Assembly (NCBI GenBank): GCA_001275005.1
Contig: JWZX01002791.1
Coordinates: 1-32,744 of the forward strand
Direction: 5' to 3'
DNA from: Chrysochromulina tobinii
Taxonomy: Eukaryota
Length of the DNA stretch: 32,744 nt
The notes beneath the pieces were generated by a model. That model did no database searches, was not told where the DNA came from, and was given only the letters and a program-made list of their open reading frames with translations. Of this stretch, positions 9,737 to 23,357 are shown in pieces. The position numbers and the translations under genes are program-made. The number at the start of each line of letters is the position of its first letter. Within the stretch, counting starts at the first letter, position 1.

Positions 9737-12700
9737 TCAGAGTGCCAAGTGGGAGGGGGCGCCTCGCCATGCGTTTCGGAGGGCTTGCTTGGCTTGTTTA
9801 TCGAGGTCATTGTACTCAAGGCTGCGCACACACAGAGGGTGCGTTGTCGGGTTGCAAAGAGCAGTGGGGTCAGAGAGGCCTCAATTCGATTAAGTTTGAG
9901 GCGAAACGTACCATATTTCGGTCAGCGCGCCTGTGACGGTCGTGCGGAGCGCCTCGGCGATCAGCTTGCCTCCAACAAGGCCGATGTTCTCGTAATGCGC
10001 GTCCATAGACATAATCTCGCTGTCCTTGTTGCCGCAGATGGCGGCAAAGATGGCGCCCCAACCCTCATCCCTGAGCTGGTTGCCCCTGAGGTCGACGGAC
10101 GTCAATGTGCTGTTGACGCCAAGCATCTTGGCCACATGTTTGGCGCCTGCTGACCCTCCGATGTTGCTGCCATAGTTGCTGCCATAGTGGCTAATGTCAA
10201 GCTCCTTAAGCGTCTTGTTCTGTTCTAGTGCCTCGCAGATGGCTTTGGTGCCCTCCTCCCCCAACCTGTTTTTGGCTAGGGACAGCATCGTCAGCGCGCC
10301 ATTAACGCGCAGGGCGTCGGCGATTGCAGTGATGCCCTCTGCGGTGTAGGTGCCTTGTTGGCCGTCTCTCTCGGTTTCCCAGATGCCACACAGACGGTTT
10401 TTGGAGAGGTCGATGCTTGTCAGCCCGCCTGTGACAACGGCCTGTGACAGGTCCGACGCCAGCAGGACGGCATCGGTCGGCATGAGGATGTGCTGGTCGG
10501 AGAAGTCAGCGGTGGTCTGGTCGCGCCGGATGCCGCAGAGCGAGATGCCCTTCTGCTTGGCGACCTGAACGAGCATCTTGGCGGACTCCGAATCAAGGTG
10601 ATTGTCCAGGAGGTTGGCCACCGTCAGCGCGCCATTACCGCGCAGGGCCTCGGCGATTGCAGAGATGCCCTCTGCGGTGTAGGTGCCTCGAAGTTCTCCA
10701 AATATAGTTTCGATGCCGCACAGCTGGTTTCGGGAGAGGTCAATGCTTGTCAGCCCGCCTGTGACAACGGCCTGTGACAGGTCCGATGCCAGCAGGATCG
10801 CATCGGGCGGCCCGAGGCTCTTGCATTGTTCCTTGGATGTGGTCTGGTCGCGCTGGATGCCGCAGAGCGAGATGCCCTTCTGCTGGGCGACTTCAGCGAG
10901 CATCTTGGCGGACTCCAAATCAAGGTGATTGCCCAGGAGGTTGGCCACCGTCAGCACGCCATTACCGCGCAGGGCCTCGGCGATTGCAGCGATGCCCTCT
11001 GCGGTGTAGGTGCCTCGAAGTTCTCCAAATTCAGTTTTGATGCCGCACAGCTCGTTTCCGGAGAGGTCAATGCTTGTCAGCCCGCCTGTGACAACGGCCT
11101 GTGACAGGTCCGATGCCAGCAGGATGGCATCGGGCGGCCCGAGGCTCTTGTATTGTTCCCCGGATGTGAAGTCAGCGGTGGTCTGGTCGCGCCGGATGCC
11201 GCAGAGCGAGATGCCCTTCTGCTGGGCGACTTCAGCGAGCATCATAGCGGACTCTGCATCAAGCTGATTTCCCAGGAGGTTGGTCACCGTCAGTGCGCCA
11301 TTGACGCGAAGAGCATCAGCGATGGCGTTGATGCCCTCTGCGTTGTAGTTGCCTTGCTGCGTGCCATTGCCGTCAATCCAGATGCCGCACAGCTGGTTTC
11401 GGGAGAGGTCGATGCTTGTCAGCCCGCCAGTGACAACAGCCTGTGACAGGTCCGACGCCAGCAGGATCGCATCGGGCGGTTTGAGCTCGCCGCGGAACCA
11501 CCCCGTTGCGAGCATGTCCTCGAGCACGCTGTCCACCGAGAAGTTAGCGGTGGTCTGGTCGCGCCGGATGCCGCAGAGCGAGATGCCCTTCTGCTTGGCG
11601 ACCTCAGCGAGCATCATGGCGGACTCCGCATCAAGATGATTGCCCAGGAGGTTGGCCACCGTCAGCCCGCAATTAACACGCAGGGCGTCGGCGATTGCTG
11701 TGATGCCCTCTGCTGTGTAGGTGCCATGTGGGTCGCCATGACGGTCAGTCCAGATGCCACACAGCTGGTTTCCGGAGAGGTCCAAGCTCGTCAGCCCGCC
11801 CATGGAAGGAATGAGATAAGAAATGAGCATGGCCGCAGGCCCTTGGAGCCCCTCATTACACAAGTTCAGCTCCCCGGCACGAACGCGATTCTTGAATAAA
11901 TAACCCCATTCATCCTTCTTGAGGAGAGAAGGGACGTCCTGTAGAGTGTCCTCCCGCATATGCTGCACCGGAACGCGGCATACCACACCTGAGCCCGCAC
12001 AGGCAACGGCTGCGATCGTCAGCTTCAACGGTGCTTCTCCGTCGCCTGATATGCAGCTTTCGAGAGCAGCCTTAGCAGTACCACGAAGCAACGAAGCTGG
12101 CGGCGGCAAAGCGGCACCAAAATGACTCGCCTCCTGGACGCCCAGATTCGCGGCCCGTACTTTCGCCACGTCCACCACAAAGCCGTAGCCATGGAGGCGC
12201 GCCAGCCCTGGCAGCATCCGCCCCGCTAGGGCCGTGTCCCCCGGACGGCCGGCCTTGATGAGCAGCTCAACGTCCAGGTCGGTGATCGCTTCCAGATGTG
12301 TGGGTGCCGGATGTCCGCGGCCGCGGCACAGGCGCGAGCAGAGGACACGCCGTGACAGCGCACGCCAAAACCGATTCACGCCCTTGAGCTCGCACAGCGT
12401 GGCCACGTCCACAAGGGCCAGAGCAGCCTCCTTGGCATCCTCCGTGGCTGGCACCGCCGAGAGCGAGGGCTGCCGCAGAGGTACGGGCGGTGCCGAGGAG
12501 CTGGCCGCGCCGAGCTGCTGCGGCGCCTCGTAGCCTTCTGGTACAAACGCCGGCTCAGCGAAAGCCTCCGCGCGCTCCTCCGCGCCATCAAAGTCACTAC
12601 TCGCGCCTAGCACCACGCAGAGGTCGTGAGCGCGCTGGCCGTTGAGCCGTGGCGCGATCGCACGCTGGATGTGCTCGAGCGCCCTATTGGCGTCGAGAAA

Positions 12701-13009
12701 GAGGGCACCCTCGACGAGCTCCATGAGCTGCGGCATCGAGCACTCGTCGACACTTGGCCGTGTGGAGTCAGGATCACTCAGCTTCCCCAGCAAGTCAAGC
12801 GTCCAGGCCGCAATTTTTGGCACCGGGTACACGTCATCCTCGGGAGGGGCGTCGTCCATAAGATCCTTCAAGGTGCCCGCATTTCGCGCGGCCTTGCGCG
12901 GCCACGTGACCTCTTCTCCCCCTCGCGCTCGCACGCGGATTCGCTCGTCGGCCGTGCCCGTTGTAAGAGCGTCGGTTGCGCTGGTGCCGAGTGCGTCGCG
13001 TGCGGCCAT
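9737..13009 (-). CDS. Skp1-like + F-box + RI-like leucine-rich repeat fusion protein, join(13009..9912, 9821..9737), ~1060 aa
   Basis: First ATG is at 13009 (the ORF-track start at 13135 is GTG). Skp1-like region ~12945-12550 (RIRVRARGGEE...GTLKDLMDD...YPVPKI; LMELVEGALFLD...RLNGQRAHDLCVVLGASSDFDGAEER); F-box-like PATEDAKEAALALVDVATLCELKGVNRFWRAL ~12455-12330; LRRs of the LTSIDLSRNQL type from ~11870. Splicing gives a typical LRR cap, ALTEICLEYNDLDKQAKQALRNAWRGAPSHLAL-stop. Confidence 0.85.
9822..9911 (-). other. 90-nt phase-2 spliceosomal intron
   Basis: Donor TG|GTACGT at 9911, CTGAC branch-like motif, acceptor TGCGCAG|C at 9822; removal restores the LxxIxLxxNxL pattern. Confidence 0.85.
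10290..11800 (-). repeat. tandem LRR super-repeat (3 LRRs per unit; units of 372, 342, 327 and 330 bp plus a partial fifth)
   Basis: GGLTS(I/L)DLS anchors begin at 11800, 11428, 11086, 10759 and 10429, with high nucleotide identity between units. Confidence 0.9.
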
Positions 13010-13055
13010 CGCGTCAGCACGTTGCGGGACAAGGCGCTTGAAAGTGATGGGCAAT

Positions 13056-13091
13056 GCTCGGAAGATGTTCCGCGCTCGGAAGATGTTCCGC
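13056..13091. repeat. 18-bp direct repeat x2 in the divergent intergenic region
   Basis: gctcggaagatgttccgc occurs twice in tandem, ~50 bp upstream of the Skp1-F-box-LRR ATG. Confidence 0.8.
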
Positions 13092-13413
13092 GCGGCCGTG
13101 TGGCCTTGAGTGTGGGGAAAAAGCTTCTTCCCCACTTATTCCCATCAAGTCGCCTCTAGGGGATTCAAGGAGCGTTTCACAGGGTCACAGGACTGAGGAC
13201 TCTCGCTTCTCGGAGTTTTTTCTCTCGAGTATTCTGAGCGGGCAGTACAAGTAATGTAGTAACGTGCACGCGACAACCGGTGCTCAAGTACAAATAGCTT
13301 GGAAAGGGGTGGGGGAGTACGTGGACGCGCTCACACGTGCGTCTACAATTGTACGGCACTGTTCACGGTACCGGGTACTGTTGTGTTCGTGAGTTTAACG
13401 TTCACGCGACTGA

Positions 13414-16400
13414 ATGGCCCTTGAGTGTCATGTCGACTCGCCCCTCAGGCACCTGCTATTGCGAAGCCCGGATGTGCCCTCGCCACTCAAGCGTGCACGC
13501 GACGACGACGACGACGACGACATCCTTTTTGTGGGCGAGAAGACCCGTGCGGAACGCGATGCTGAGCTGCTGGCCAATGCTGTCGACGTGGAGGATTGGA
13601 GCACAGCGAGCTCTGGGCCGTCGCAGCCACTCACAGGGAACTCGCCGTGGCAGCCGATGCCAACGCCGCGAGTGAAAATTGAGAGAGGCGATAGTGCTGG
13701 TCCTGAGCGACCGCCTGCGTTGGTGCGTCCAGCAGCACGGCTGGCCCAGCCACCGCTGCCCATGGGTGCGCTGGACGAGGACCAGCGCCACGCTCTCCAA
13801 GTGGCTCTGCTGGGCCACGACGACGACGACGACGACATCCTTTTTGTGGGCGAGAAGACCCGTGCGGAACGCGATGCTGAGCTGCTGGCCAATGCTGTCG
13901 ACGTGGAGGATTGGAGCACAGCGAGCTCTGGGCCGTCGCAGCCACTCACAGGGAACTCGCCGTGGCAGCCGATGCCAACGCCGCGAGTGAAAATTGAGAG
14001 AGGCGGCGATAGTGCTGGTCCTGAGCGACCGCCTGCGTTGGTGCGTCCAGCAGCACGGCTGGCCCAGCCACCGCTGCCCATGGGTGCGCTGGACGAGGAC
14101 CAGCGCCACGCTCTCCAAGTGGCTCTGCTGGGCTCGAATCTCTTCCTCACCGGCGGAGCCGGCGTGGGCAAGAGCTTCACGCTGCAGCAGATCATCAGTC
14201 ACCTCGTCGCAAAGCACGGCGAGCGTGCGGTGGCGGTCACGGCTACCACGGGATGCGCGTCAGTCCACATCGACGGCCAGACGCTGCATTCGCTCGCGGG
14301 CGTCGGCGTGCCGCAGCACGTGGCCGACTTTGGGCGGCTGTGGGGTTTCTCGTCCGAGGGGGCCAAGGCGACAGCGTGGCGCGAGATGAAGGTGCTCATC
14401 ATCGACGAGGTGAGCATGCTCGATGCCGAATTCCTCGACCACTTTTCCATCGCGGTGGACCGCACCATCAACTACGCCGCGATCAAGGCGGCCGAGGAGG
14501 CGGCCGAGGAGCGGCGCGCGCGGCTCTTCGGTGGCGGCGTGCAGCTGATCGTCTGCGGTGACTTTTTGCAGCTCGCTCCGGTGCGTAGGACGTACGCACA
14601 GAACGCGGCTACTACACGTGGCGACAGGCTGCCGTCGTTGCGCGAGCCGCCGCAGCACGGCCGTGGCGGCGCCGCCCCCAAGCGTGCCTACGGCACTGTC
14701 GAGACGAGTGGCCAGCCGGCCTTCAAGTCGGTCGCGTGGCAAGAGGCGGGCTTCAAAACGGTCGAGCTTCGCACAGTCCACCGGCAGCGGGAGCCGACCC
14801 TTCTCCGGGCGCTCAATGACGTGCGGGTGGGCCAGGCCACAACAGAACACGTGAAGGCACTCTTGCGCCACACACGACGGGAGCTGCCGCAGCCCGGCGC
14901 GAGCCGCAGCGCTGACAGCGAGGACTGCAGCGAGGAGCGCACAGAGCCCGTGCGCCTCTTCTGCACCAACGCGCAGTGCGAGTCGCTCAACACGGCAAAG
15001 CTCGCGCAGGTGCTCGCGAGCTCGGCGCGCTGGGACCACCTGGCACAAGATTGGGTCGAGCTGGACCCCGAGGCAGTAGAAGAGGAGCTGGAGCGGCGAC
15101 CTCGCACATTGCCCACGCTCCTCAAGGCAGAGGGTGTGGGGACCGACTCGTCGCGTGAGACGATCCGCACATTGTGTGCGCCCTACGGCAAGGTGATCTC
15201 AGTCGACTTGGAGCGCGCCACGTCCGAGGCCACAGTGCGCTTCGAAGCCGCGGAGGGTGCGGCTTCAGCGCTCAGGGCGCTGCGCGGCATGGGCACGGAT
15301 GTGGTCGCGACGTGGCGCCGACCTTCGGTGCTCGAGTCCATCACTTGGGAGCTCGAGCAAGAGTTATGGGACTGCTTCTTTGCCGACGACGACGTGCACG
15401 TCCCTAAGCAAAAGACGCTGGCCGTGGGCGCGCAGGTGCTACTCACCAGCAACGAGACGCCTGGCGGCTTTGTCAACGGCGACTTGGGTCAAGTCGTCGC
15501 CTTTCGCCAGCCGTTGGCCGAAGAGCTGCGCAAGCTCGAGGAAGAGGGTCGGCCGTTGACGGCCGACGAGACGGTACATTCGTACCCGGTGGTACGGTTC
15601 CGGCGATCCAACCGCCGTGGTGAGCGCGAGCGGCTGGTGCTGCCGTGCAACAAGATGCGCCGAGTCTACCGTGTTGGCAGGGGCATCCGTCGTCAGCTGC
15701 CGCTCACGCTCGCTTGGGCGATCACGGTGCACAAATCGCAAGGCATGTCTCTCGATGCGCTGCAGTGTGAGCTTGGGAATGCCTTCGCGCCTGGCCAGTG
15801 TTACGTCGCACTAAGCCGTGCCAAGACGCTCGCCGGCCTGTGCATCAAATCGTTCGATGCAGAGACGGTGCGCCGGAAGCTTTCACACGACGCCATTCGC
15901 TTCCACGATGCAGTGCGCGCCCAGGCGGCGGCGGAGGCGGCGGCGGCAGTGCCAGCGCCAGTCGGCCGTGGCGGCGACGATGGCAAGGGCCCCCTGGCAG
16001 AGTTCTACGAGCGCGCCCACTTTTGGTGGAAAGAGATTGTTGAGGGCCCGAACACGCATGCCCAATGGCCGACCGTCTTCGCAGAAGACGATGGCTCCGA
16101 AACACCCTTCGGTACAACCTTTGCAACTGAGTGGCGGCGGTGGGTGGCGACATATCCGGTGCCAGAAAGGCTGTGTGCATTTCCAAACACCAGAGCGGAG
16201 GGGCGGTCAGCCTCGCTCGACCGCCGCGAGCTCGACATGCAGCTGCTCGAACACCGCTTCAAACAACAGGCGCCTTGGAACGTGTGCTCACCGTCTGAGT
16301 GTGCGCCCAACTCGATACCGCCCGGCCCACCCTCCTCTATTGGCAGCAGCAGCCTACGCGGCAGCGATGGCGGTGGTGCTGGAAGCGATGCTGGGAGCTC

Positions 16401-16800
16401 GATGGGTGGATGGGGTCGTGGGAGCTCGAGGGCGGGCTCGGAGGTGGCCTCGGACGCAGTCGCAACCTCGCTGGCCCGCGATGGCGGAGGAGGCGGCGAA
16501 GGCGGAGGCGGGCCAGCCATAGAGCCCGAGCCTGACTGTGTGCAGTATGCCGTCACGGGACCTGCGGTCGTGGAAGATTTTCCAGTCCTTGAAGATCTTC
16601 CACGACCAAGGATGGCAAGGAGCTTCTTCAATGTCACTGAGTCGGATGCTTTGAGCGCCACGGGGTTGTTTACCGAATCATCGAATCTGGAAGGAAGTCC
16701 CTGGCAAGTTCCGCTCGATATCATGAACATCGCGAGCTCAGCTCAACTCGAAAGCATTGCTGAGGAAGACGAGAGGATGGGTGCACCACCGTGTGCGTAG
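13414..16800 (+). CDS. PIF1: PIF1-family 5'-3' DNA helicase
   Basis: Motifs LFLTGGAGVGKS, TATTG...GQTLHSLAG, LIIDEVSML, FGGGVQLIVCGDFLQLAPV, LRTVHRQ, VGAQVLL, VNGDLGQV, RQLPLTLAWAITVHKSQGMSL and GQCYVALSRA, in the expected order. Confidence 0.93.
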   Translation: MALECHVDSPLRHLLLRSPDVPSPLKRARDDDDDDDILFVGEKTRAERDAELLANAVDVEDWSTASSGPSQPLTGNSPWQPMPTPRVKIERGDSAGPERPPALVRPAARLAQPPLPMGALDEDQRHALQVALLGHDDDDDDILFVGEKTRAERDAELLANAVDVEDWSTASSGPSQPLTGNSPWQPMPTPRVKIERGGDSAGPERPPALVRPAARLAQPPLPMGALDEDQRHALQVALLGSNLFLTGGAGVGKSFTLQQIISHLVAKHGERAVAVTATTGCASVHIDGQTLHSLAGVGVPQHVADFGRLWGFSSEGAKATAWREMKVLIIDEVSMLDAEFLDHFSIAVDRTINYAAIKAAEEAAEERRARLFGGGVQLIVCGDFLQLAPVRRTYAQNAATTRGDRLPSLREPPQHGRGGAAPKRAYGTVETSGQPAFKSVAWQEAGFKTVELRTVHRQREPTLLRALNDVRVGQATTEHVKALLRHTRRELPQPGASRSADSEDCSEERTEPVRLFCTNAQCESLNTAKLAQVLASSARWDHLAQDWVELDPEAVEEELERRPRTLPTLLKAEGVGTDSSRETIRTLCAPYGKVISVDLERATSEATVRFEAAEGAASALRALRGMGTDVVATWRRPSVLESITWELEQELWDCFFADDDVHVPKQKTLAVGAQVLLTSNETPGGFVNGDLGQVVAFRQPLAEELRKLEEEGRPLTADETVHSYPVVRFRRSNRRGERERLVLPCNKMRRVYRVGRGIRRQLPLTLAWAITVHKSQGMSLDALQCELGNAFAPGQCYVALSRAKTLAGLCIKSFDAETVRRKLSHDAIRFHDAVRAQAAAEAAAAVPAPVGRGGDDGKGPLAEFYERAHFWWKEIVEGPNTHAQWPTVFAEDDGSETPFGTTFATEWRRWVATYPVPERLCAFPNTRAEGRSASLDRRELDMQLLEHRFKQQAPWNVCSPSECAPNSIPPGPPSSIGSSSLRGSDGGGAGSDAGSSMGGWGRGSSRAGSEVASDAVATSLARDGGGGGEGGGGPAIEPEPDCVQYAVTGPAVVEDFPVLEDLPRPRMARSFFNVTESDALSATGLFTESSNLEGSPWQVPLDIMNIASSAQLESIAEEDERMGAPPCA
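13501..14133 (+). repeat. near-perfect in-frame tandem duplication (315/318 bp) in the PIF1 N-terminus
   Basis: 13501-13815 repeats at 13816-14133; by eye the copies differ only by GAC vs CAC at the first codon and one extra GGC codon. Confidence 0.95.
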
Positions 16801-17125: not shown

Positions 17126-19540
17126 TTAATCCTTCCCCCTCTCGACGACATCGACCGGGGCGGTCGACTTCCTGGGGGGGAGCAGCATCTTCGCAAAAAG
17201 GCCGCCCATCACGGGCCGCGCGATGAAGCTGAGCGCGTACGTCTGCTTGGCCGTCACGGTGTCGTACAGGTCCGTGAGTGGCTGGCGGCTCTCGGTCTCA
17301 TTGTAGTACCGGAAGAGAGGATCCATGAGCTTGTGGAAGCCCGTGTCGTCGGGCATCATCGCAGCGACCCAAGAGAGCCAATCGCTCTTGACGTAGGTGT
17401 GGCGCGGGTCCATGGGCACGCCATACTCCTTGAGGTTGCGTAGGCAGTAGTTGGTCTCAATCTTGGCGATCTTGTCAAAGTCAAACGGCCCGTCGAGTTC
17501 GAGCAGTCTCTGCCACAGCAGATTGTACTTGAAGCTCCAGCTGTCGGTGACGCCGGGCACCGGGTTGTAGCTCATCATGTAGTGCGGAGCGATTCGGTCA
17601 GAGTAGGCGTACTGCTCCCACGTGGTCGCGTAACGGTCGGCCGTCGCACTATACGACTTGCAGTCGACGCCCTCGACGCCCATGAGCGAGCACAGCTCCG
17701 CGTAGGCTCGGATGGCGATGATGCCCTTCTGCCCCAGGTTGGTGTTGTTCGCGAGCCGGCCGGTGAAATCGTCCGTGCACAGCTGGTCCGCGGGGAAGAG
17801 GGACGTACGCACAAGCTCGTCGGCCCATTTCTGGAGCATCGGCATGTAGGGCGTGAGCCACCTCATGGCCGATGAGGCACCCGAACGCTGCACGAGCGCC
17901 AGGAGCATGAAGAGCATGTTGCCGCTATTCTCGAGCGGCATGGGCTCTTGCGCGGCGGTCGAGTCGTTGGCGATTGGGTATGTGCCCAGCTGATGCGGCG
18001 AGTACGGGTTCCCGAAACGAATGAACGTCTCGTTGTTAGCGTACGCCAGCACAGGCACGAGCAGCTGTCGGAGCAGCTCGGGCTCCGTGTACAGGAGCAT
18101 AGGCGAGGCGGGGTAGATGACATCCATCGTGTTCATATCTCCGTTGGTCGATATCTCCTTGAGGAAGGTCCACGTCACGTCGCGATCGTCCACCCAAACA
18201 GGCTTGAGCGCCGCGAGCACCTGCCGGTAAGCGAGGGCGCAGAGCTGCGAGTACGCGACGCCACCGACGGCCTGCAGCTTAGCGAGGAGGGCTTCGTCGT
18301 GCTGCTCACTCTTGGCGAGGAGCGCGTCCACTTCGGTGGAAGCGGCGGCGATGGCCGCCGTGATATCGGGGTACGCCTGCGTCCACAGCCCCTTGTACTC
18401 CTTCTTGAAGTAGTAGACCGAGCGCACGTCGTCGTACGCGAGGAGCACGGTGTGTTGTGCTGACGCCGACGTTGTGCCGCGTGCGCCGACGACGCCAAGA
18501 TCGACGAAAATGGCGAGCGCGGGGAGGTCGTCGGCGCACGTGCGAGGCTGGCGCGTGTCCACCGTGCTGGGCAGCGTGCCAGTCTGGACGAAGTCCTGGC
18601 GTGCCCTTGCCGCCGAGCCAGCACGCAGCACGCTCGCTGGCGCCGTCGACTCACCAGCAGCCAGATACAAGTAACCCCAATCAATATTGACGCGATCGCC
18701 TTTTGAGCCGAGGACTTCCTGGGCGTGCGAGCCCATCCGGATGGCGTGCACCCTTGGATCGTAGATATCCGCCCACTCGACCTGCTGCCCCTCACAATCG
18801 TTGACCGTGTGAGCGGCGGAGAAGTCTGTGTACAGCTTGATGCTGTGCCCTTGGCCATCGAGCGACCGAACCTCGTGGTGGACGTAGTATACGGGGCGGC
18901 TGAGGCGCAAGTGATCGTCGGTGAAGGCCGACTGCAGCAGCGTGAGCGTGAGCGCCACCACGCCCGGGACCTCGAGCTCGAAGACCGTCCGGGTCGGGTA
19001 CACGACGACCGAGCGCTGCATCATCGACGGCACCGAGACGTCGCACGGCGGGCGCGAGGCGGGGTAGATGACGCTCGAGTTGCTGCGAGCGTCCTTGGTC
19101 CGCGGCTCGGTGCAATCTTTGAGCCAGCATGTGTCATGGTCGAGCACGAACCCCTTGCAAGCCGGGTTGTTGTAGCAGCGCTCGTTGCAGTCGTCCACTC
19201 CCTGGTTGCCCGTGTCGCCGATGTCGCACTGGCTTGGATTGATGTTCTCGCCGGGGTACGCCGTGGCCGGCCCCGGTGTAGTCACCCGAGGGCTGTGGCA
19301 GTCGCCCAGATAACGATACGTGACTCCGTCCACCATGATCATGCCGAGGCTGTCCTTCGCGACACCGTCCCAGTGCCGCACACCGGCAGCGGTCGAGTTG
19401 TCACCCCAGATCCAGCTTTGCATGAAGGGGTCGGCGGTGATCAGTGGAATCGCCGGAGGGCGGAATCGAAGGTTGGCGATCGCCGCGCTCGCCGGGCCAG
19501 GCGCGGCGGCGTGCGTAGCAGTAGCGAGCAGCGTGAGCAT
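17126..19540 (-). CDS. secreted glutaminase A (GtaA)/DUF4964-DUF5127-DUF4965-DUF1793 family protein with an inserted PAN/Apple-like domain
   Basis: Signal peptide; FRPPAIPLITADPF, LSRPVYY, GDRVNIDWGYLY, FLKEISTNGDMNTMDVIYP, HQLGTYP, MPLENSGNM, QLCTDDFTG, NTNLGQKGIIAI, SFKYNL, YVKSDW and ARPVMGG match this family as I know it. Confidence 0.88.
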   Translation of the reverse strand: MLTLLATATHAAAPGPASAAIANLRFRPPAIPLITADPFMQSWIWGDNSTAAGVRHWDGVAKDSLGMIMVDGVTYRYLGDCHSPRVTTPGPATAYPGENINPSQCDIGDTGNQGVDDCNERCYNNPACKGFVLDHDTCWLKDCTEPRTKDARSNSSVIYPASRPPCDVSVPSMMQRSVVVYPTRTVFELEVPGVVALTLTLLQSAFTDDHLRLSRPVYYVHHEVRSLDGQGHSIKLYTDFSAAHTVNDCEGQQVEWADIYDPRVHAIRMGSHAQEVLGSKGDRVNIDWGYLYLAAGESTAPASVLRAGSAARARQDFVQTGTLPSTVDTRQPRTCADDLPALAIFVDLGVVGARGTTSASAQHTVLLAYDDVRSVYYFKKEYKGLWTQAYPDITAAIAAASTEVDALLAKSEQHDEALLAKLQAVGGVAYSQLCALAYRQVLAALKPVWVDDRDVTWTFLKEISTNGDMNTMDVIYPASPMLLYTEPELLRQLLVPVLAYANNETFIRFGNPYSPHQLGTYPIANDSTAAQEPMPLENSGNMLFMLLALVQRSGASSAMRWLTPYMPMLQKWADELVRTSLFPADQLCTDDFTGRLANNTNLGQKGIIAIRAYAELCSLMGVEGVDCKSYSATADRYATTWEQYAYSDRIAPHYMMSYNPVPGVTDSWSFKYNLLWQRLLELDGPFDFDKIAKIETNYCLRNLKEYGVPMDPRHTYVKSDWLSWVAAMMPDDTGFHKLMDPLFRYYNETESRQPLTDLYDTVTAKQTYALSFIARPVMGGLFAKMLLPPRKSTAPVDVVERGKD

Positions 19541-19751
19541 TGATTAATGGAGCCACACATCGCTCGCGCGCGGAAGGGCCGAAGTCCCGCCCCCGGCCCC
19601 GTCGTGTCCACCCAAACTTCGGCGAAACCGTTCCACGCTTACCCCATGGGCGCGTGACTGCGACTAGACATAACGCAATGATCAGCAAATTGAGACTTTT
19701 CGCAGAAGACACGCCGCCGGAAGCGCTCGCAATATGCGCTCCGTCGAATCG

Positions 19752-20999
19752 ATGCTGCTAACCTTTCTCCTGACCTCCGCAGTATCTGCAGTACGTCTCG
19801 CCCCTCCTTCATCACGTCTCTCAGTGCTCCCGCGACGAGAACGAGCCTCGATCGTCGCGTTGGCAGCCGACGCCTCGCTCGCCGAAGCCGTTGACTCTGC
19901 TTGTGCAAGGGCGGCGCCTCCGCGCGTGGGCCTCGATGACAACGGCGAGACCGAGCTGCGGATTCAGAACGAGTTGCTCTCAGCCTACGCGGCGCTCGCC
20001 TCTCAGGGCCGGCTGCGTGCCTTTGGCAGCTGCGCGGGCGCGCTGCCGGCGCCGGAGCCGCGCGAGCTGCCTCCGGAAGCGCAGTTCCAGCTGACTGGGC
20101 TGCCAACCAAGGCGTTTGCGCCGCCGCCGGTGAACAACGTGGCCGATTTGGCGGTGGGGCTGACGGGCGCCGGCCTCCTTGCAGCCGCAGCCCTCGTACT
20201 GCAAGTCGACTACCGGCTCTTCGCGGGCGGCATCGGCGCAGCCCTCGCGGCTGACCGTATACTCTTCAAGGGATTACTGGCGGAGGGGTTGACGCGTGCG
20301 GTGCGCCCGGGATACGCGTCAACGGTGGTGAAGCACGAGGCCGGCCACCTGCTCGTGGCCGTGCTGCTCGGCTGCCCGATCCAGAATGTCGTCCTCGACC
20401 CGATCGCCGCCCTACGCGACGGTCGCTTCGGCGGGGTTGCTGGCACGGTGTTCTTCGACCCAGCGCTGGGCGAAGGGATGCGTAACGGGCGACTCTCACG
20501 CGAGTCGATCGACCGGTTCTCCGTCATCGTGATGGCCGGGCTCGCCGCTGAGGCGATGCTCAACGGCAAGGCACTCGGCGGCCAGTCTGACGAGCAATCT
20601 CTCGTTGCGTTGCTCGCGTCACTCGACGGCGGGCGCACGTGGAATCTCGGACGCATCCAGAACCAGGCGCGCTGGGGCGCGAGCCAGGCGCTGCTGCTGC
20701 TGCGCGAGCATCGGCCCGTGTACGACGCGCTCGTCACGGCGCTCGAATCCGGCTGCACTGTCGGTGAGGCCATCGCCACTATCGAGGCGGCGGTCGTGCC
20801 CACTTTTGGCCGCAACGGCGAGCTTCCCGGCGAGACGCGCCGTCGCAAGCTAAGGTCCGCGGCCGCGGAGCTGAGCGATCTGGTGGCACCGGCACGCGTC
20901 GTGCCGCAGAATGGCGATGCTGCTGCCGCTGCCGTCTCGCAGATCGCCGAGCGGTTGCGCGCCATCGACAGGCGGCTCGCCGAGCTCGACCCTGAATGA
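19752..20999 (+). CDS. VIR3-like plastid FtsH-type (peptidase M41-like) zinc metalloprotease lacking the AAA domain
   Basis: HEAGH zinc motif in KHEAGHLLVAVLLGCPI; AGTVFFD, IDRFSVIVMAGLAAEA, GGQSDE and NQARW track plant VIRESCENT3. Two TM helices precede the motif, and the N-terminus looks like a signal plus transit peptide. Start is 19752 or 19734. Confidence 0.85.
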   Translation: MLLTFLLTSAVSAVRLAPPSSRLSVLPRRERASIVALAADASLAEAVDSACARAAPPRVGLDDNGETELRIQNELLSAYAALASQGRLRAFGSCAGALPAPEPRELPPEAQFQLTGLPTKAFAPPPVNNVADLAVGLTGAGLLAAAALVLQVDYRLFAGGIGAALAADRILFKGLLAEGLTRAVRPGYASTVVKHEAGHLLVAVLLGCPIQNVVLDPIAALRDGRFGGVAGTVFFDPALGEGMRNGRLSRESIDRFSVIVMAGLAAEAMLNGKALGGQSDEQSLVALLASLDGGRTWNLGRIQNQARWGASQALLLLREHRPVYDALVTALESGCTVGEAIATIEAAVVPTFGRNGELPGETRRRKLRSAAAELSDLVAPARVVPQNGDAAAAAVSQIAERLRAIDRRLAELDPE

Positions 21000-21116
21000 A
21001 TTGGCATTTAAAAAGATCATGACAAACTCTGCAGATCGCGTGTCACACAGCTCTGCAACCAAGTGTTACACTCTCACATGAGTACATATACGATCAGCAA
21101 CGACGCCCCTATCCAT

Positions 21117-21189
21117 GCCTCTCTTTCTCCGCGACGAACGGCTGCGGAAGTTACCACGCAGTTGTGGTGTGCGTCGCTTCATCCGAGGC
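21117..21189 (-). promoter_or_regulatory. candidate type II SECIS element
   Basis: Minus strand: GCCUC/GAGGC helix I, A-UGAA/GGAG core, helix II opening with GCGACG/CGUCGC, CACAA bulge and CUGCG/CGCAG ministem, ~45 nt after the stop of an ORF with an in-frame UGA. Confidence 0.6.
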
Positions 21190-21232
21190 CGAGGGTAGTG
21201 CGTGGTCCACCAATCACAACGAGGTGCGCCCA

Positions 21233-21451
21233 TCAGCCGACGACCTTGACGGGTGTGCCGATGGCGACGCGGCGCACCTCGGTGCCGTTGACCGCTTTGC
21301 CCACCACCGGCGTGTCCTGCTCGTGCTTGAGCTGCGAGCAGGACTCGCCGTGGCAAGCGAAGTTCAGCCGGTTCTCCTTATTGCTGCCGAACCGAGCCGC
21401 GACGGCGTTGTAGAGGAATTCGCAGGCTCCGATGAGCAATCAGAGAACCAT
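21233..21451 (-). CDS. candidate small selenoprotein, 72 aa (MVLULLIGACEFLYNAVAARFG...)
   Basis: ATG GTT CTC TGA TTG CTC at 21451-21434, followed by 68 codons with strong GC3 bias and no other ATG; SECIS-like hairpin in the 3' flank. Confidence 0.6.
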
Positions 21452-21685
21452 GGAGTCTGTGTTGCGGAGGGCCGAGATAGAAAGCCTTTTGTGAGCGAAA
21501 GTTTGTGCGAGCGCGTCCGAGAATCTTCACGCGTTCACGGCGGCCCAAGCGCTCGTAGCGGCGCGTAAAGTTACTGTGCAGGATCCGCCCCTGCCTGCGA
21601 AAGCGCGCTCGCAAGTGCACAGTTTAAGGTCGATTCAGCAACGTGGCACCCGATTCGTAGAACAATTTTGAATGCAGGCCCTCGT

Positions 21686-22363
21686 CTAGCGGAGACCATC
21701 TGTACATGTGATTACAGAGGACTTAGAGTCCAACCTCTCGGGCGCTGGTATCCCTTTCGACGTCGGGCGACCCGAGGGCGCTCGCATTCGCTGCTGTGGC
21801 GGCGGCGAGTGTGGCGAGGCCATGCAATTACCTGTCTCCACCGTGCCTCCCAGACGCCTGTAGAATTGCACGAGCTGCTCGGTCCGGCGCTCGGAGGCCT
21901 GATGCGCGGCCTTCACGGAGCCACTCAGCGCACCGAGCCCGTGTGCCTCGGCATAGGACGAGGCGCTCCGCATCAGTCGACTGCCTACGCCGCAGCCACG
22001 GTGCTCCGGCAGCACGCAAAGAGATGAGACGAAGAGCGTGTCGTGGTACTTCACGAGCATGGCCAGCCCAACCACGTGAGCGCCCTGGATCGCGAGGAGC
22101 CACTCGCAAGCGTCGACGTCGTGAAAGCCGCACAGAACGCTCAGCGCGTCCTCTTCCATGGCAGCTCGCGTATCCTCGTCCGCGAGGTCCTCAGGAAAGC
22201 TGCACTCAATCAAGCCCTTGATGGCGGGACTGAAGCGGCGAGCCACGGAGGAGCTAGCGACGACGATTCGGCAGCATTGTCGCTGGCGCCGCTGGCGCCG
22301 CAGGTAGTGGAGAGCGAGTAGAGCCGCTCCGACAACGAGGATCCGTGCGAACACCTGGCTCAT
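21686..22363 (-). CDS. GNAT-family N-acetyltransferase with N-terminal signal anchor
   Basis: Motif A LCVLPEHRGCGVGSRLM and motif B LVQFYRRLG; hydrophobic N-terminus followed by a basic stretch. Confidence 0.85.
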   Translation of the reverse strand: MSQVFARILVVGAALLALHYLRRQRRQRQCCRIVVASSSVARRFSPAIKGLIECSFPEDLADEDTRAAMEEDALSVLCGFHDVDACEWLLAIQGAHVVGLAMLVKYHDTLFVSSLCVLPEHRGCGVGSRLMRSASSYAEAHGLGALSGSVKAAHQASERRTEQLVQFYRRLGGTVETGNCMASPHSPPPQQRMRAPSGRPTSKGIPAPERLDSKSSVITCTDGLR

Positions 22364-22699
22364 CCATGCATTGCGACGCCTGCCTCGTGCTATTCTTCAT
22401 GTTTGCATGTTTCGTGTTTGGGGAAGGGGGGCGGGGTCTTTGTGAAAAGGTGTGGGATGGAAAGCAGGCGCTGACAGTCACTTGTGTGAATTGGCTGTTA
22501 GCACGGCAACAAAGTCGGTTCAAAGTCAACCCTTTCTATGCACGCTGATGCAGCACACTGTCACTGATCACTGTATGCTAGCAGCACGCTGTATGCACGC
22601 CATATGCACGCCGTGCACGCTGTATGAAACGGATCAAGCACGCTATCCCGCAATGCGGCATCTCACATACTCCGCATGTGAGGCGGCGAGCCCTTGGCG

Positions 22700-23357
22700 C
22701 CAAGCATGCCCGCCACAGGGTGTGTATCCTGACGGGCCACGCAGCGCCTGGTGCATCTCGGCACCAAGAGCAGCCGGATGTCCGCGCGCCAGGCGGCCTC
22801 CTCAGCCTCCGTCTCGGCCTTGGCAAAGCCCGGTGCCGAGGCTGATTTCCAGTCTCTTGCCGCTGCCAATCCATGGCATGGGCCACGGGGCTGGTGAACC
22901 CAATGAACTCGACGAAGCAGCGGGTTCTTGAGAGCGTGCCTCGACCTCTTCAGGCACGCTCTCCAAAACCCGCTGCTTCAAAAGACGACTGCGAGCGAGA
23001 GCGAGTGAGCGAGTGAGCGAGTGAGCGAGTGAGTGGCGAGAGAGGGAGCGTTCGAGCGCACCTAGGACCTCCTCCGACCCACTCGACTGGCTTGCGGATA
23101 AGGAGGCGAGCAGATGCGGCGTCAGCGGAGATGCCCACAACCGGCGCAGTGCCTCGCTGCTATGCAACACGTGGCGCCGGTCCACGCATACGAACGCCAT
23201 GTCCTTGCCTCCGAGGGCCACTAACTCGGAGGCAAACTGCAAGGAGATTGCTAGCGCTCTCGATAAGGGCAGCTAGATCTGTGAGCGAGCACCCTTCGAG
23301 GCAAAAGGCCGACGAACCTTCGTCGTCGTCGTCGCACAATTCCCCAAGTGTGCGCAT
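22700..23357 (-). pseudogene. fragmented gene-like region including a Skp1-like relic and an intron-like segment
   Basis: Short coding-like stretches in shifting frames; 23357-23240 resembles the Skp1-like segment of the 9737-13009 gene; GTGCGC...CGCAG intron-like segment at 23061-22989. Confidence 0.35.
22991..23040. repeat. (GAGTGAGC)n 8-bp microsatellite
   Basis: gcgagtgagcgagtgagcgagtgagcgagtgag tract. Confidence 0.8.

Follow-up and report, generated by a model that had tools for sequence, protein, structure and literature searches.

A candidate selenoprotein gene with UGA at codon 4 and a CC-type SECIS-like hairpin in Chrysochromulina tobinii

Can a UGA placed four codons into a small frame of Chrysochromulina tobinii be decoded as selenocysteine (Sec), or does it mark a decayed gene, a short upstream frame or a piece of an intron? 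The locus lies in a window of 32,744 nt (the whole stretch analysed, contig JWZX01002791.1, assembly GCA_001275005.1), in which a sequence-only reading had seen a small selenoprotein with a SECIS-like hairpin behind its stop. Eukaryotic selenoprotein families are seldom newly found: among 137 algae surveyed, three new ones were reported, described as PDI-like, AhpC-like or Trx-like (PMC7539508). Pipelines of the Seblastian type require an annotated homologue in which three or more residues are conserved both before and after Sec (PMC3753652, supplement S4). Such a filter is blind to an orphan whose Sec is residue 4 and whose SECIS is of the CC type. Of the proposed selenoprotein, the transcript, the coding signature and a SECIS-like element at a distance of 257 nt were borne out; the incorporation of Sec itself we infer.

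The window has about 63 % GC and carries frames that are long, unbroken and eukaryotic in type (PIF1 helicase, LRR protein, glutaminase A, FGGY kinase, GNAT). The PIF1-like helicase frame (13414-16800, plus strand) contains an RRM-like domain as well as a 315-bp stretch duplicated in tandem almost perfectly (13502-14133, 99 % match), the LRR protein (9890-13135, minus strand) is built on a 327-bp repeat in 3.6 copies (10289-11479), and the intronless glutaminase A gene (17126-19543, minus strand; GtaA-type, DUF4964/DUF5127) carries a PAN-like insert.

On the minus strand the small frame opens with ATG at 21451, continues with GTT CTC, encounters TGA at 21442-21440 as codon 4 and runs through 68 sense codons to a terminal TGA at 21235-21233 (Table 1); start, internal TGA and the translated 72-residue peptide beginning MVLU were confirmed as first described. 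Within the RNA-covered stretch 21485-21003, the ATG at 21451 is the sole ATG 5' of the terminal stop, and the next one overlaps that stop. The strong GC3 bias reported for the frame was reproduced with a value of 0.90 over codons 5-72. A codon model, trained on six long genes of the window and expressed as log-likelihood per codon, gave 0.179 for these codons; four held-out genes, cut into 114 overlapping windows, averaged 0.086 (sd 0.091), and none of 159 stop-free wrong-frame windows attained the score of the small frame. It was lower in residues 5-38 (0.11, 0.07) and higher in residues 39-72 (0.29, 0.25). No coding signal was present in the 20 codons upstream of the ATG (-0.005) or past codon 73 (-0.017, -0.144), and competing frames on both strands scored negative. 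A plus-strand reading was dropped, its three ATG frames of 27-111 amino acids having scores of -0.01 to -0.11. The 60 nt immediately 3' of UGA4 are predicted to form a stem-loop (feature 21380-21442, minus strand) of -19.9 kcal/mol, which may be a recoding element.

Table 1. Features of the small gene and of its transcript, in window coordinates
Feature	Position	Strand	Basis or remark
Short 5' leader	21452..21485	-	RNA contigs start at 21485, 21479, 21472 and 21467; weak hint of transcript start
72-codon intronless frame and stop, in-frame TGA at codon 4	21233..21451	-	frame and codon scores
UGA codon 4, putative selenocysteine, next base U	21440..21442	-	unchanged in RNA contigs X1-X4 and haplotypes L004, X15, X16, X17
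Residues 1-21, hydrophobic helix, predicted signal anchor or signal peptide, with Sec4 and Cys10	21389..21451	-	hydropathy; low-confidence model
Cys33-His34-x3-Cys38, predicted beta-hairpin (low confidence)	21338..21355	-	invariant in 14 of 14 listed alleles
Terminal UGA (UGA73), probable true stop	21233..21235	-	50 nt before AUGA of the hairpin
Type II SECIS-like element	21117..21189	-	starts 43 nt past the terminal stop
SECIS-like helix I	21189-21185/21121-21117	-	5 bp
SECIS-like A-UGAA core	21182-21178	-	
SECIS-like helix II	21177-21169/21139-21131	-	6 WC pairs, one mismatch, 2 pairs
CCACAA bulge	21167-21162	-	
Ministem, 5 bp	21161-21157/21146-21142	-	
3' core GGAG	21130-21127	-	
Distal 3'UTR	21003..21116	-	RNA contigs reach 21003-21020, where they touch or overlap contigs of the convergent plus-strand gene
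405-nt GT-AG intron implied by P0014	21427..21831	-	junction deduced from the protein; no RNA support

The stretch is present in 14 RNA runs and in 4 runs of unknown kind, and eight of these 18 were compared with the window. Each of the four RNA runs compared (X1-X4) contributed one contig, reaching from 21003-21020 to 21467-21485 and showing no differences, joints or loose ends. The TGA of codon 4 is unspliced and unchanged in all four; by a 31-letter rule it is bridged by X1 and X2, not by X4 (30 letters) or X3 (25). These are assembled contigs rather than raw reads, they carry no strand or level information and can lose rare forms, and the runs, all from the same year and of the same library type, possibly stem from a single campaign. 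An unspliced 5' end had been named as a check on the gene, and a TGA that is spliced out or unsupported by raw reads as a ground for its refutation; the contigs of the four runs carry the TGA with no joint and so, at the level of contigs, refute the gene on neither count. Positions 21486-21655 had no RNA cover, a weak hint of a transcript start. An intron in the 5'UTR ending at the CAG before the ATG is not supported, as neither joint nor loose end was seen, with a cover upstream of the CAG of only 10-28 nt. At the other end the transcript approaches a convergent plus-strand gene of 422 codons (19734-20999), which has no Pfam or NCBIfam match and a HEAGH motif that we take to be peptidase M41/FtsH-like; the RNA contigs of this gene stop at 21019-21027, where they touch those of the small gene or share up to about 25 nt with them (21003-21027).

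In the public databases the locus appears as part of P0014, a EukProt/JGI model of Chrysochromulina parva and a member of the peptide's 90 % cluster. The last 64 residues of P0014 are 100 % identical to window positions 21427-21236, which makes the window DNA of C. parva type, from that alga or a very close haptophyte. The model joins an upstream GNAT gene to codons 9-72 by an intron that deletes both ATG and TGA; it thus misses the gene, in line with the suspicion that standard gene callers would not see it. Were the model correct, codons 9-72 would be the last exon of a GNAT acetyltransferase and the TGA would be intronic. The model exists, and GT and AG stand at the implied junctions; against this, no joint was found in the contigs of the four RNA runs compared, from which rare forms can be lost, and the frame of GNAT ends in a stop of its own at 21686. 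Since the acceptor is bridged unspliced in all four RNA runs and the donor in one of three (X2), the intron is very likely a gene-caller artefact; the fusion is largely refuted and we give it hardly any probability. The small gene is real, expressed and mis-annotated. P0014 also appends two short upstream pieces (23200-23057 and 22863-22756) to the GNAT domain within 21686-23200 (minus strand). As the GNAT frame has an in-frame ATG of its own at 22363, the model may be in error for these two pieces as well.

Decoding of UGA4 as Sec calls for a SECIS located within the 3'UTR. The elements of the hairpin that had been quoted before are all present (21189-21117, 43 nt past the stop), while the interpretation of its apical part had to be revised: the AA, placed at 15-16 nt from the core, was found at 14 nt past the quartet, beyond the 10-13 nt that all four published patterns allow, and a CC at 10 nt is the better reading. 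The core consists of A-UGAA and GGAG with the invariant GA/GA, the last position of GGAG being G and not the A/U of the KGAW consensus. Four SECISearch patterns (PMC3753652, supplement S1) were re-implemented for this analysis. In our implementation the hairpin failed the strict, default and loose patterns because the apical AA lies 14 nt past the quartet, and it matched the loose+ pattern (apical AR or CC) by the CC, not by the AA. Taken alone, a loose+ match is uninformative, with 82 sites in the window and 988 matches in 3000 shuffles of the 3'UTR. We therefore added fold criteria, i.e. a local minimum free energy structure in which four or more pairs follow immediately on the core, GA/GA stays unpaired and an outer helix closes; these are post hoc, set after the site was seen, though looser than the site itself. 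This hairpin was the only one of the 82 window sites with such a fold, and five of 3000 dinucleotide shuffles of the 3'UTR combined it with a loose+ match; an ad hoc scan tuned on the site returned 1 and 11 of 5000. The structural filter of SECISearch3, applied by hand, was passed with a score of 2.4 before the Covels term, corresponding to grade B or A. The SECIS-like fold is more than chance. Its folding energy is ordinary (z -0.78), and no Rfam match was obtained at E<=10 with the SECIS covariance models included; non-metazoan SECIS are the hardest to predict according to the paper on the SECISearch3 tool (PMC3753652). In ViennaRNA, which leaves kink-turns unmodelled, the SECIS pairs had a probability of about 0.2 in the folded 3'UTR and of about 0 in the whole naked mRNA. 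The hairpin pattern had no match in viral contigs. The CCAC 10 nt after the core suggests a possible haptophyte form of SECIS that is directly searchable.

The two UGA codons differ in their distance to the core, 257 nt for UGA4 and 50 nt for UGA73. With a minimum distance of 51-111 nt between UGA and SECIS for recoding (PMC3753652), this geometry would recode UGA4 and not UGA73. A second Sec at UGA73 was dropped on account of this distance and of the following frame, which is not coding-like.

A translation that does without Sec would explain the coding signature equally well. ATG-GTT-CTC-TGA would be a three-codon upstream frame, followed by re-initiation at the TTG adjoining the UGA and thus a protein of 68 residues, or the UGA would be read through as Cys or Trp independently of a SECIS. 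Prokaryotic gene callers start at this TTG directly 3' of the UGA. Yet the hairpin is left unexplained, and five of the ten window genes examined terminate with TGA, so UGA is an ordinary stop here. Initiation at UUG is weak in eukaryotes, and the leaky readthrough context is UGA-CUA, whereas UGA-UUG is found here. We regard this alternative as very unlikely.

Relatives of the peptide were sought among proteins, metagenome and viral contigs, prokaryotic genomes and phages. A phmmer search of 1.84 billion proteins revealed no homologue beyond the cluster of its own species, and word-indexed protein searches at near, longer and shorter lengths returned only this cluster of 35 members. Two phmmer matches (P0018, P0019) were discarded as repeat-summed matches in unrelated proteins of 724 and 1040 amino acids. 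Pfam (at E<=10), NCBIfam and PDB sequences gave no match to the peptide, in line with the earlier impression that it belongs to no recognised family. Four loci in metagenome contigs were confirmed by tblastn, three identical to the window (L001-L003) and one divergent (L004); equally confirmed scans of viral contigs and prokaryotic genomes yielded none, and phages none. Six prokaryotic matches to a degenerate DNA pattern of the N-terminus were chance matches with no similarity further on, and a search of viral contigs for syntenic relatives with two neighbour genes was negative. A Cys version of the peptide was not found in the sequence collection searched. As the searches did not lead beyond the species cluster, they supplied neither a Cys homologue nor a TGA from another species nor covariation; the absence is only partly informative, because a frame with UGA at codon 4 stays uncalled unless an alternative start follows. 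Titles and abstracts of the literature on Chrysochromulina selenoproteins or selenocysteine held no description of this gene. Chrysochromulina is not mentioned in the main text of PMC7539508, whose supplement may list further hypothetical families, and two motifs of the peptide are absent from the Seblastian supplement of PMC3753652.

Variation within the species bears on the question of decay. ATG-GTT-CTC-TGA is intact in all four divergent haplotypes that cover the TGA (L004, X15, X16, X17), and the hairpin is unaltered in these and in X18; X15-X18 belong to one study. The metagenome contigs L001-L003, being identical to the window, are not independent and add nothing. As only three variant positions were seen in the whole 3'UTR of 230 nt, the unchanged hairpin is not significant as a sign of constraint. 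In the coding frame the DNA haplotypes had three non-synonymous and two synonymous changes, compared with one and six in the neighbour gene of L004. The 14 listed database alleles of 68 amino acids, drawn from the 35 members of the cluster, differ at 10 of 68 residues, while residues 6-11 and 28-45 are invariant. All 14 begin at codon 5, which is expected if a gene caller takes codon 4 as a stop, an indirect indication. The protein thus varied appears weakly constrained, judged by these sequences. The intergenic stretch 21486-21685 is far more variable between strains than the adjoining genes and UTRs, with many changes in X15 and X18.

Such a pattern could also be left by a transcribed pseudogene, in which a TGG or TGC/TGT codon turned into TGA and the change went to fixation in the species before the codon bias decayed; the hairpin would have arisen by chance or be left over from an earlier selenoprotein gene. 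The excess of non-synonymous variation over the neighbour gene, the lack of homologues and a hairpin outside the canonical patterns are in agreement with decay. The rarity of SECIS-shaped hairpins in the shuffles (5 of 3000) and the missing Cys version speak against it. Moreover, no frameshift or further stop was present in five DNA haplotypes or in the 14 alleles, the latter pre-filtered for open frames, and the two invariant blocks contrast with the intergenic DNA immediately upstream, which in L004 differs by 7.5 % substitutions and by indels. We consider a pseudogene unlikely. The probable answer is a lineage-restricted selenoprotein of no known family with SECIS-directed Sec at codon 4; with all evidence coming from a single species, we regard it as a strong candidate and not as an established family.

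For this selenoprotein we propose an intronless frame in which UGA4 would be decoded by the CC-type SECIS of the 3'UTR. By the established eukaryotic mechanism SBP2 would bind the GA/GA kink-turn core, and eEFSec would deliver Sec-tRNA to UGA4, 257 nt off, while UGA73 would be too near to the core and terminate translation. Without selenium, translation would halt after three residues. The product would have 72 residues, 7.8 kDa and a pI of about 8.5, and its first 19-21 residues are predicted to anchor it in a membrane: residues 1-19 have a mean Kyte-Doolittle value of 1.9, with Glu11 breaking into the hydrophobic helix. A single-sequence AlphaFold2 model of low confidence (pLDDT 54, pTM 0.25) shows a helix at 3-21, a hairpin at 30-41 with Cys33 and Cys38, and disorder in the remainder; a Foldseek search with it ended at a meaningless E of about 9. 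The peptide has no UxxC or CxxU motif, only U-x5-C. From this anatomy, and provided that Sec is inserted, the chance is about even that the helix stays uncleaved and serves as a signal anchor in an endomembrane, the ER or a different one. The selenol might then act at the membrane edge as a nucleophile in redox or acyl-transfer reactions, be recycled by Cys10 or the invariant pair Cys33/Cys38, and the small protein might be the partner of a larger membrane protein, as SELENOK and SELENOS are.

The same recoding step could serve another purpose. If residues 1-18/19 were a cleaved signal peptide, Sec would be inserted and discarded, and UGA and SECIS would license a secreted Cys/His peptide of 53-54 residues only when selenium is available. 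Signal-peptide features were judged by eye and by hydropathy: residues 2-10 are hydrophobic and pass into a more polar stretch ending in small residues, where Ala16-Val-Ala18-Ala19 fits the -3,-1 rule by eye. The lack of a redox motif around Sec4 and the invariant Cys33, His34 and Cys38 in the tail would suit this selenium gate, whereas a basic n-region is missing, residues 6-11 are invariant, unlike a typical free-drifting signal peptide (among few alleles), and a targeted literature search found no precedent. As a whole we hold it to be improbable, its share overlapping with that of the selenoprotein reading from which it borrows the recoding. Were it true, the Sec codon would be a selenium switch rather than an active site, and the Sec would be thrown away.

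The selenoprotein reading has consequences beyond this locus. The public C. parva model conceals a small gene within an invented intron, and, if true, the reading points to a class of micro-selenoproteins that haptophyte selenoproteomes have so far left out. It also opens to experiment the questions of whether Sec insertion can be efficient only four codons past the start and whether the codon serves chemistry or control.

Known systems offer partial likenesses. With type II SECIS the hairpin has in common the AUGAN/NGAN core, a stem paired directly after the core, a CC at 10 nt and an outer helix; it departs from them in a helix I of 5 bp, GGAG in place of KGAW and the missing Rfam match. The nearest single example is the predicted grade A element of Emiliania huxleyi AhpC (Seblastian candidate 12), a protein that ranks first among the Emiliania candidates of supplement S5 (PMC3753652) and has EST support. 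Compared by eye (n=1), both have AUGAN, 10 nt, CCAC and a 5-bp ministem, and the Emiliania element likewise lacks an AA at the canonical place. It lies 51 nt past a terminal TGA, the core of the hairpin 50 nt; its helix II has nine contiguous WC pairs, that of the hairpin six.

Thioredoxin-fold selenoproteins are set apart by the absence of UxxC/CxxU and of any Pfam, NCBIfam or PDB match. SELENOK and SELENOS resemble the peptide as small proteins with one N-terminal hydrophobic segment, a polar tail and no thioredoxin fold. In both, Sec stands where a basic tail rich in Gly and Pro reaches its C-terminal end, in contrast to residue 4 inside the hydrophobic segment here, and no Pfam or sequence match connects them with the peptide. 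Both are recorded for algae (PMC7539508). C18orf32 (UPF0729/DUF4512) has about 76 amino acids, an N-terminal helix that is hydrophobic and then amphipathic, and a disordered tail (PMC12797721); the helix of the peptide is shorter (3-21 vs 4-35). Membership of this family found no support, with no Pfam family at E<=10, where HMMER filters hide weak matches, and none among the phmmer matches. In the literature listing searched C18orf32 was not reported as a selenoprotein. Like the peptide, C18orf32 has a Cys near its N-terminus.

Comparable in kind are MSP and the Ostreococcus hypothetical proteins 1-3, which are algal, without assigned activity and were found via SECIS and UGA (PMC2375036); in MSP and hypothetical protein 3 the Sec adjoins hydrophobic segments. 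All are much longer, with the motifs GSUCWP, GCUG, PCUGR and GLUNI, and by eye have no similarity to the peptide. The background of the lineage speaks for the selenoprotein reading: for another haptophyte, treated in PMC6627142, a full set of Sec machinery (tRNA-Sec, eEFSec, SBP2, SPS2) has been shown, 96 selenoprotein genes are predicted for E. huxleyi (PMC7539508), and four Chrysochromulina species are recorded as selenium-requiring (PMC6254913).
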